This document shows positions 50,149-50,597 of a stretch of DNA of 64,000 nucleotides, one piece after another. Source of the DNA: Escherichia coli (GTDB lineage: Bacteria; Pseudomonadota; Gammaproteobacteria; Enterobacterales; Enterobacteriaceae). A program made the position numbers and the translations under genes. Each line of letters starts with the position of its first letter. The first letter of the stretch is position 1. The notes beneath the pieces were generated by a model. It ran no database searches, had not been told where the DNA came from, and saw only the letters and a program-made list of their open reading frames with translations. Where the stretch lies: NCBI RefSeq assembly GCF_003334335.1, contig NZ_QOWQ01000020.1; one strand, 5' to 3'.

Positions 50149-50597
50149 GTGGCGATTAATTTCAGCCCTAAGGTTGGTGAAATACTGGAATGCAACTTTG
50201 GTAACTATCCTGTTAGCCAAAATGGACCGTTCAGCACGACGTATTACGATGGCCGCATTCCTCCTGAAATGATAAAAAACAGGTTAGTTGTCGTGCTCAA
50301 CGGAAAAATTAATGGCAACGCATGCATCGTCGTTCCATTATCAACCACTCGCGACCAGACAAGTTAAAACGTGGAATGCATGTTGAAATAGCCAGTAATG
50401 TTATCAATGACCTGCAATTCTTTGATCAGCAGATTCGTTGGGCCAAAGCCGACCTGGTACAACAAGTCAGTCGAAACAGATTAAACAGAGCAAGGACTTA
50501 CAGAGGGTATCTTAATCAATGTTTGCCACATGAGTTGGTTGCAGACATACAGAGGGCGGTCATCAAGTCAATCAATGCCATATCGCTCATAAATTGA
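50149..50597 (+). pseudogene. yifN: frameshifted MazF/PemK-family toxin-like gene
   Basis: GTG 50149 preceded by AAGGAG; frame 1 gives VAINFSPKVGEILECNF...NACIVVPLSTTRDQTS*, continuing in another frame from ~50322 (RPDKLKRGMHVEIAS...AKADLVQQVS...) with MazF-like motifs. Confidence 0.7.

Follow-up and report, generated by a model that had tools for sequence, protein, structure and literature searches.

A frameshifted MazF-fold gene of Escherichia coli K-12 and the conserved small RNA that accompanies it: a candidate toxin–RNA antitoxin module

Introduction

What is the broken yifN gene of Escherichia coli K-12 a remnant of, and what else belongs to it? In the 64,000-nt E. coli stretch analysed here—hereafter "the window", with positions counted from 1 on the whole stretch—yifN lies between rep and ppiC, as first predicted, and is a frameshifted pseudogene of a MazF-fold gene. 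Its neighbourhood (gppA / rep / yifN / ppiC / ilvC / ilvY) is that of a K-12-type chromosome, and the region is 100% identical to that of O16:H48 strains. The pseudogene as such is already known: MG1655 annotates the same interval as yifN (b3777, 3960012–3960460), RefSeq records a frameshifted pseudogene, and the annotation pipeline PGAP labels it 'type II toxin-antitoxin system PemK/MazF family toxin'.

MazF-family proteins are the textbook type II toxins and are always described with a protein antitoxin. The original prediction, made from the window alone, took yifN for an orphan, the decayed remnant of a toxin–antitoxin (TA) pair. Here we describe a small RNA gene directly behind yifN that is expressed in K-12 and adjoins yifN across genera. 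The evidence leans modestly towards the reading that the K-12-type null allele is the dead toxin half of a toxin–RNA antitoxin module, similar to the type III systems and non-repetitive. The searchable open-access literature holds no description of the YifN–RNA pairing and no functional study of yifN.

Results

A structured, independently promoted RNA gene follows yifN

An alignment of the downstream DNA of yifN from E. coli and Superficieibacter showed ~95–97% identity over the ~110 nt that follow the stop codon, in a comparison in which the synonymous divergence (dS) of yifN itself is saturated (1.5–1.9). This conserved segment was used for nhmmer searches and then for a covariance model, R1, which has a single match in the 64 kb of the window, at 50628–50703 (85.8 bits, E = 3.5e-18). 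With its promoter, the RNA gene (50594–50703) lies just outside the interval to which the original prediction was confined, and it went unnoticed there. The −35 box overlaps the yifN stop codon. Such a promoter precedes 34 of the 39 RNA copies found across genera, with the −10 box ending 5–6 nt before the model start and a mean of 9.4 of 12 consensus matches, and the TTGA of the −35 box is invariant in the cross-genus RNA alignment.

The RNA folds into three hairpins, which in the window comprise the helices P1 (50632–34/50641–43) and P2 (50656–58/50664–66) and the terminator hairpin P3 (50671–50698). P1 and P2 resemble copies of one motif (CCC-N-U-W-GAGG), and in plasmid Drgb7 they are exact 15-nt repeats. 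Compensatory changes occur in all three helices: 96.9% of the paired cells are complementary, as against 87.5% in shuffles and at most 62% with slid partners, and 57 cells show double changes where shuffles predict 16, the pairing statistics being raised by the fitting of the alignment to the model. The nucleotide identity of the RNA exceeds that of the coding sequence in 14 of 14 genus comparisons.

Is the RNA made? RefSeq leaves it unannotated, and Rfam 15 gives no match at E ≤ 1 for window positions 49800–51200 or for four diverse loci. Romero et al. 2014 (PMC4681348) list "ecr3777 (d+)", a northern-tested RNA of 79 nt in the ppiC–yifO interval of K-12 MG1655 (3957925–3958004), also credited there to Conway et al. 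2014. After correction for the genome-version offset, ecr3777 maps to ~50625–50706 of the window. In its length, its strand and its position between ppiC and yifO/yifN, it is the same transcript as the RNA described here. That catalogue presents it as a novel small RNA (sRNA) without known function in one strain, and mentions neither its conservation across Gamma- and Betaproteobacteria, nor its structure, nor its obligate linkage to yifN-family genes; the same holds for the other papers found.

Some Betaproteobacteria (loci L018, L052 and L056; RNA at ~3034–3144) carry an RNA that is ~30 nt longer, with an extra hairpin within or beside P2. This is apparently a structural subtype.

The RNA gene and yifN travel together

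How strict is the association between the gene and the RNA? In species-representative genomes searched with nhmmer and the covariance model, the RNA adjoins yifN in 37 of 37 full-length loci. Conversely, in metagenomes searched for the RNA alone, yifN, intact or broken, stands 38–41 nt upstream in all 23 contigs, 20 of which are E. coli-like. An adjacent non-coding RNA gene that is always found with a toxin-like gene is one feature of type III systems. The RNA lies on the yifN strand in 35 of the 37 loci, where a median of 31 nt separates it from the stop codon. The covariance model finds no RNA in E. coli loci that lack yifN, and the chromosomes of this species hold the RNA in 4,016 genomes and the locus in 4,019. 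Six fragmentary yifN remnants have no RNA match under default filters; unfiltered, one weak match (21.4 bits) appears by the Haemophilus remnant L063.

The exceptions in orientation are informative. In Shewanella surugensis (L048 720–800, minus strand), the RNA is inverted, abuts the 3′ end of yifN and converges with it, and the RNA of a Limnohabitans plasmid (L077 2464–2540, minus strand) is likewise inverted against the yifN 3′ end. Because they are inverted, these RNAs are not part of the yifN mRNA. Herbaspirillum sp. Sphag64 (L060) carries two tandem copies on the minus strand (1478–1561 and 1635–1720), each with a promoter, ~0.8–1 kb upstream of a yifN homologue that is read as a 214-aa open reading frame (ORF) on the opposite strand. 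The inverted and relocated copies keep their promoters, and therefore an action in trans is suggested.

The pair is also widespread on plasmids. A blastn search with the RNA finds 97 plasmid records (Escherichia 65, Pseudomonas 18, Klebsiella 8, and others), and tblastn with YifN gives the same genus counts together with 40%-identical copies on small Pasteurellaceae plasmids. The RNA is present on pCAR1, p1448A-large, IncX4, pPHE69, Drgb7 and the Limnohabitans plasmid. On pCAR1 and the large plasmid of P. savastanoi 1448A it lies 37–61 nt after the gene, and on the IncX4 plasmid it is kept although IS2 has split yifN. The phage genome collection holds no copy of the RNA. Taken together, these data make it very probable that yifN and the RNA form a real, conserved module.

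The plasmid contexts vary. In pCAR1-type elements (L069 1–6074; L005–L008), yifN and the RNA belong to a long series of small hypothetical genes, all on one strand, that also includes an N6-DNA-methylase-like gene, an arrangement that resembles plasmid leading or anti-defence regions. Glaesserella pHN61 (L073) and Haemophilus parainfluenzae pM1C124_1 (L074) are 6-kb resistance plasmids with lnu(C) or blaTEM-40, a 40%-identical yifN homologue and weak RNA matches (12.9–20 bits); in pM1C124_1, a candidate RNA lies beyond the blaTEM insertion.

Two other roles for the RNA were considered and rejected. Antisense (type I) control of yifN disagrees with the location of the RNA on the gene's own strand, and RNAduplex pairing with the translation initiation region of its own yifN has a mean z of 0.11, with 2 of 28 loci below −2; within this comparison, UCUCCCCUU seemed complementary to AAGGAGAG in the yifN leader, as an anti-Shine-Dalgarno element would be, and showed no enrichment over shuffles across the 28 loci. 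A small peptide is no better candidate: the 32-aa ORF at 50660–50758 overruns the terminator into unconserved DNA, and indels of 1–4 nt occur in the linkers and loops.

YifN has the MazF fold

What kind of protein does the gene encode when the frame is repaired? As the original prediction expected, repaired YifN matches the Pfam model PemK_toxin (PF02452; E = 1.1e-10) over residues 38–141, which correspond to model positions 15–108 of 109 and span the break, and YifN homologues carry precomputed PF02452 assignments. The alignment-based AlphaFold model, used here in place of a single-sequence one (predicted local distance difference test score, pLDDT, of 78.8 and 35, respectively), adopts the SH3-like barrel of MazF, Kid and CcdB, and the top 37 Foldseek matches to it are all MazF. 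By profile and by fold, YifN is a member of the PemK_toxin superfamily. Its fold suggests that intact YifN is presumably a sequence-specific endoribonuclease, and it may be toxic.

YifN differs from the type II endoribonuclease toxins of PF02452, MazF, PemK (Kid) and ChpBK, in its length (149 aa versus ~110 aa), in a β1–β2 loop that is ~17 residues longer and in a longer C-terminal helix. The family has 19 invariant columns, including R45, S65, H78, K100, S108 and R111. With hhalign, R45 and S65 fall on R29 and T52 of MazF, in a weak alignment (probability 21%, E = 1e-3) that used four toxin reference sequences.

The family, which bears the JGI name "YifN, PemK superfamily", is compact: among 1.84 billion representatives, it comprises 30 clusters at a threshold of E ≤ 1e-30 and 125 at one of E ≤ 1e-10. 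It ranges over Enterobacterales, Pseudomonas, Aeromonas, Shewanella, Legionellaceae, Cellvibrio, Xanthomonas, Pasteurellaceae and several Betaproteobacteria. NCBIfam holds no family for the repaired protein or for either fragment; a sequence search of the PDB, with the single protein or with the family profile, gives chance matches only; and the sole PHROGs match is phrog_15698, of unknown function.

No conserved protein partner adjoins yifN

Does a protein antitoxin stand beside the gene? Six contexts were inspected by hand, followed by 36 loci from ~20 genera, in which every ORF of 35 aa or more was collected from the 450 bp on either side of yifN. Clustering of the 275 flanking ORFs from the 36 loci yields no cross-genus family except antisense shadows of the conserved 5′ coding region of yifN itself. 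The neighbours differ from genus to genus, and the ORFs that abut the yifN start in a few loci are mutually unrelated. No conserved ORF of antitoxin size stands on either side of yifN in the window, in agreement with what was first noted there. The hallmark of type II systems, an adjacent co-oriented antitoxin gene in the same operon, is accordingly missing from the window and from the 36 loci: where MazF, PemK and ChpBK have MazE- or PemI-type partners, no such gene adjoins any YifN locus, and a conserved RNA gene is found instead. Tandem-repeat arrays of the ToxI type were sought with Tandem Repeats Finder, and none was found in the window or in 39 loci.

A single deleted nucleotide inactivates the K-12-type allele

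What exactly is broken? The features of the locus are collected in Table 1. The first frame opens with GTG at 50149–50151 behind the AAGGAG sequence; both this start and the stop at 50367 (TAA, 50365–50367) were correctly predicted. The Shine-Dalgarno sequence is kept in strain STLEFF_29 and reads AAGGAA in Superficieibacter. The frame encodes VAINFSPKVGEILECNF...VVPLSTTRDQTS, and the second frame (offset +2, that is, −1), which is open from ~50313 to its stop codon, encodes ...DKLKRGMHVEIAS...RAVIKSINAISLIN. Comparison with two intact alleles, those of O55:H7 (WP_000996692.1; L002 2650–3099) and of the divergent-lineage strain STLEFF_29 (WP_000996698.1; L003 2648–3097), reveals one T as the sole difference in length (449 versus 450 nt), and the C-terminal frame matches these alleles exactly but for 1–2 substitutions.

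Table 1. Positions of the yifN–RNA locus features in the window
Feature	Position	Strand	Details
Promoter of the partner RNA (sigma-70)	50594–50622	+	−35 TTGACA, 17-nt spacer, −10 GATAAT; 11/12 consensus match
Small RNA gene (~76–80 nt; ecr3777)	50628–50703	+	Covariance model R1; predicted start G50629
Shine-Dalgarno sequence of yifN, AAGGAG	50133–50138	+	10-nt spacer to GTG; read from sequence
yifN (b3777) pseudogene, 149-codon MazF/PemK-fold gene with 1-nt deletion	50149–50597	+	
N-terminal frame, YifN residues 1–69 plus aberrant tail QTS	50149–50367	+	72-aa truncated product
Frameshift site, one T of the His70 codon (CAT) deleted	between 50357 and 50358	+	Alignment with two intact alleles
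C-terminal frame, YifN residues 71–149	50358–50597	+	Stop TGA 50595–50597
yifN–RNA cassette, presence/absence polymorphism in E. coli	~49967–50750		Alignment of the window with two yifN-less strains

The single frameshift in a protein of ~150 aa that was first proposed is borne out, with a product of 149 aa, and since the intact alleles join both frames, these are not two unrelated genes. The homology does continue in the second frame; it resumes at 50358 (Asp71) and not at ~50322 as first stated, the 12 codons before 50358 being out-of-frame readings of residues 59–70. A sequencing artefact is excluded because 1,224 complete genomes, assembled independently, share the identical 60-nt deletion allele. 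In the structural model, the 72-aa fragment retains only strands β1–3, with R45 and S65, and lacks most of the invariant residues, among them H78, K100, S108 and R111. With the T of codon 70 lost, the protein ends after its third β-strand and is therefore, according to the model, inactive in K-12. This 1-nt deletion is the only decay in the window: the RNA half is intact and expressed. Translation is still attempted, as a Ribo-RET study found initiation at the annotated yifN start in K-12-type cells, plus an upstream in-frame start. For the latter, the obvious candidate is the GTG at 50107, in frame and 14 codons ahead of the annotated start (window 50107–50148).

The cassette is polymorphic in E. 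coli and selected where intact

How is the locus distributed within the species? A 60-nt probe with the deletion at its centre was searched against a collection of 5,426 complete E. coli genomes. It finds the exact deletion allele in the 1,224 genomes mentioned above and the T-containing 61-nt span in about 2,700, among 3,926 locus-bearing genomes. About half of the genomes examined carry an intact copy, O157:H7 and O55:H7 among them. A composite probe of the 5′ ends of rep and ppiC places the two gene starts only ~86–120 bp apart in 1,364 of the 5,426 genomes, including Nissle 1917, and these genomes lack the ~780-bp cassette completely. Other inactivations comprise IS1 beside the gene (H1), IS2 inside the plasmid copy, and frameshifts and deletions in metagenome contigs. 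Independent frameshifts, IS2, IS1 and deletions have thus affected the gene, and the RNA has survived them.

An intact yifN with 85% protein identity lies in the same rep–yifN–ppiC arrangement in Superficieibacter electus, and on this ground the intact state is ancestral. The ratio of nonsynonymous to synonymous substitution rates (dN/dS) is 0.03–0.06, both between intact alleles and between the two genera. Judged from these sequence comparisons, intact alleles are under strong purifying selection; yifN is therefore functional where it is intact, and the K-12 lesion is recent.

Some further features of this chromosomal site are recorded here. The first ~65 nt upstream of rep (window 49925–49990), on the side of the divergent intergenic region that holds the rep start and leader, are near-identical between E. 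coli and Superficieibacter, and the yifN-proximal part is far less conserved. In the yifN-less strain HH45 (L025 530–620), a G run followed by a poly-C tract (~35 C) marks the rep/ppiC deletion junction, either as a natural scar or as an assembly artefact. In E. coli UTAK-14 (L023 9900–14950), ~5 kb between trxA and ppiC have no annotated features and almost no long ORFs, with rhlB, gppA, rep and yifN missing from the annotation, probably through an assembly defect; this assembly has no bearing on the window and was set aside.

Discussion

Which kind of module do yifN and its RNA form? We favour a type III-like pair because the protein has the MazF fold and the RNA has two duplicated hairpins that would suit a dimeric protein; because the cassette behaves in populations like a TA system, being plasmid-borne, patchy, and gained and lost as a whole; and because it is repeatedly the protein gene that decays and the RNA that stays. 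The repeated loss of the protein gene with retention of the RNA gives an order of decay that fits a toxin and its antitoxin. The specific role of the RNA as the antitoxin of YifN is a proposal that we hold at close to, and somewhat below, even confidence. More tentatively still, the pair may represent a new class of TA system, in which a MazF-fold endoribonuclease is neutralised by a single-copy, independently promoted three-hairpin RNA. Under this proposal, the module would work as follows.

RNA supply: The RNA would be made constitutively and in excess, from its own promoter.

Toxin neutralisation: The RNA may bind the YifN dimer directly through its two paralogous 5′ hairpins, with the loops UAGAG and UUGAG. 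This binding would hold the YifN nuclease inactive.

Loss of the toxin: The frameshift has killed what would be the toxin half in K-12 and in ~1,200 further E. coli with sequenced genomes, while the RNA half persists and is still transcribed.

Known type III antitoxins consist of 2–6 tandem repeats of ~35–45 nt upstream of the toxin gene, with a shared promoter and a terminator between the two. The yifN RNA, by comparison with ToxIN, CptIN, TenpIN and AbiQ/antiQ, is single-copy, ~76–80 nt long, and has its own promoter and its own terminator. Several observations count against the type III-like interpretation. The RNA lacks the tandem repeats of those four systems and lies downstream and not upstream of the gene; in place of an upstream direct-repeat array with a terminator, it contains only two short paralogous hairpins. 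The pairing statistics are inflated by the fitting of the covariation alignment to the model, the RNA-side sample of metagenome contigs is of low diversity, and the mapping of the catalytic residues depends on the weak hhalign profile–profile alignment with four toxin sequences. PADLOC, a defence library, has no match for YifN. The Pasteurellaceae plasmid copies give only weak RNA matches (12.9–21 bits). Finally, on the plasmids Drgb7 (L076 1710–1976) and pPHE69 (L075 1775–1939), a small annotated ORF precedes the PemK-like gene: that of Drgb7 has 88 aa and ends 4 nt before the gene, and that of pPHE69 has 54 aa and ends 32 nt before it. These two homologues have 30–38% identity and a weak downstream RNA match, and may stand at the border between this family and its classical type II relatives.

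Could the RNA be something other than an antitoxin? YifN might be a non-toxic RNA-binding or RNA-processing protein with the RNA as its substrate, cofactor or guide, or the RNA might be a trans-acting regulator whose maturation or stability needs YifN, in which case the K-12 frameshift would just remove the protein component. The linkage of gene and RNA would apply equally here. Moreover, purifying selection and vertical retention at a single site in both E. coli and Superficieibacter make the chromosomal gene look more like a housekeeping accessory than an addiction module, and the RNA is still expressed in K-12 despite the dead protein; the missing PADLOC match points the same way. The MazF fold, however, and the conserved Arg and Ser at the MazF catalytic positions—as placed by the weak alignment—are typical of toxins, and the patchy spread, the conjugative and small plasmids, the presence or absence of the cassette as a whole and the repeated inactivation of the protein alone are the population signature of TA systems. 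We consider a non-toxic partnership unlikely, while giving it real weight. Considerably less probable is that the downstream element merely terminates or stabilises the yifN mRNA in cis, as its 3′ end, has no function of its own and owes its conservation to hitch-hiking. Its last hairpin does resemble an intrinsic terminator, and in its usual position on the same strand, ~30 nt past the stop codon, yifN transcripts probably end there too. Such an element would nevertheless not be expected to have its own sigma-70 promoter at a fixed spacing in most copies, to be transcribed in K-12 as a discrete 79-nt RNA, to occur inverted in Shewanella and Limnohabitans and relocated in two copies in Herbaspirillum, each time with a promoter, or to have non-terminator helices (P1 and P2) and single-stranded blocks that are more conserved than the coding sequence.

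The classical explanation, also that of the original prediction, is a decayed MazEF/PemIK-type pair, in which the protein antitoxin was lost and the orphan toxin gene was then frameshifted. The PGAP label, the Pfam match and the lack of an adjoining antitoxin ORF all accord with it. It fails, in our judgement, on the wider comparison and is improbable: the 36 loci from ~20 genera have no conserved protein partner on either side, and a type II antitoxin that could have been lost therefore did not exist in the first place; strong purifying selection acts on the intact alleles; and the constant neighbour is a conserved RNA gene. Lastly, programmed −1 frameshifting, transcriptional slippage or a two-piece protein might restore YifN in K-12, given that ribosomes do begin translation at the yifN start codon in K-12-type cells and that the two frames overlap by ~54 nt. 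Yet the overlap (50313–50367) contains neither an X_XXY_YYZ heptamer nor a homopolymer run, the ATG at 50322 has no Shine-Dalgarno sequence, and the intact single-frame gene is the ancestral and majority state. The one heptamer present, A_AAA_AAC, begins at 50274 and is followed by a second-frame stop. Programmed frameshifting, raised earlier as an occasional event, is excluded on these sequence grounds by the lack of a slippery site in the overlap, and a functional split of any kind is very hard to credit. The conservation of the heptamer itself (50274–50280, yifN codons I42-K43-N44) is simply that of coding sequence, and ribosomes slipping by −1 at this point would meet a stop after ~12 codons.

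The type III-like pair thus remains the interpretation that we prefer. What would it mean? The pseudogene itself carries little weight, as it is already annotated and K-12 manages without the protein. If the proposal is true, however, the orphan E. coli sRNA ecr3777 would gain a function, the automatic "type II toxin" label would be corrected, and attention would be drawn to an RNA gene that has gone unannotated in thousands of genomes as well as on conjugative plasmids of wide distribution. Natural E. coli backgrounds with an intact cassette (O157/O55), a frameshifted one (K-12) or none at all (Nissle) already exist and make the idea directly testable. The module would then be one that has spread on conjugative plasmids—pCAR1/IncP-7, IncX4 and the Pseudomonas virulence plasmids—and in the chromosomes of Gamma- and Betaproteobacteria. 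For the MazF family, RNA-mediated, type III-like control would be extended to this fold in a new genetic layout, and YifN and its RNA would form a bridge between the type II MazF toxins and the type III RNA antitoxins.

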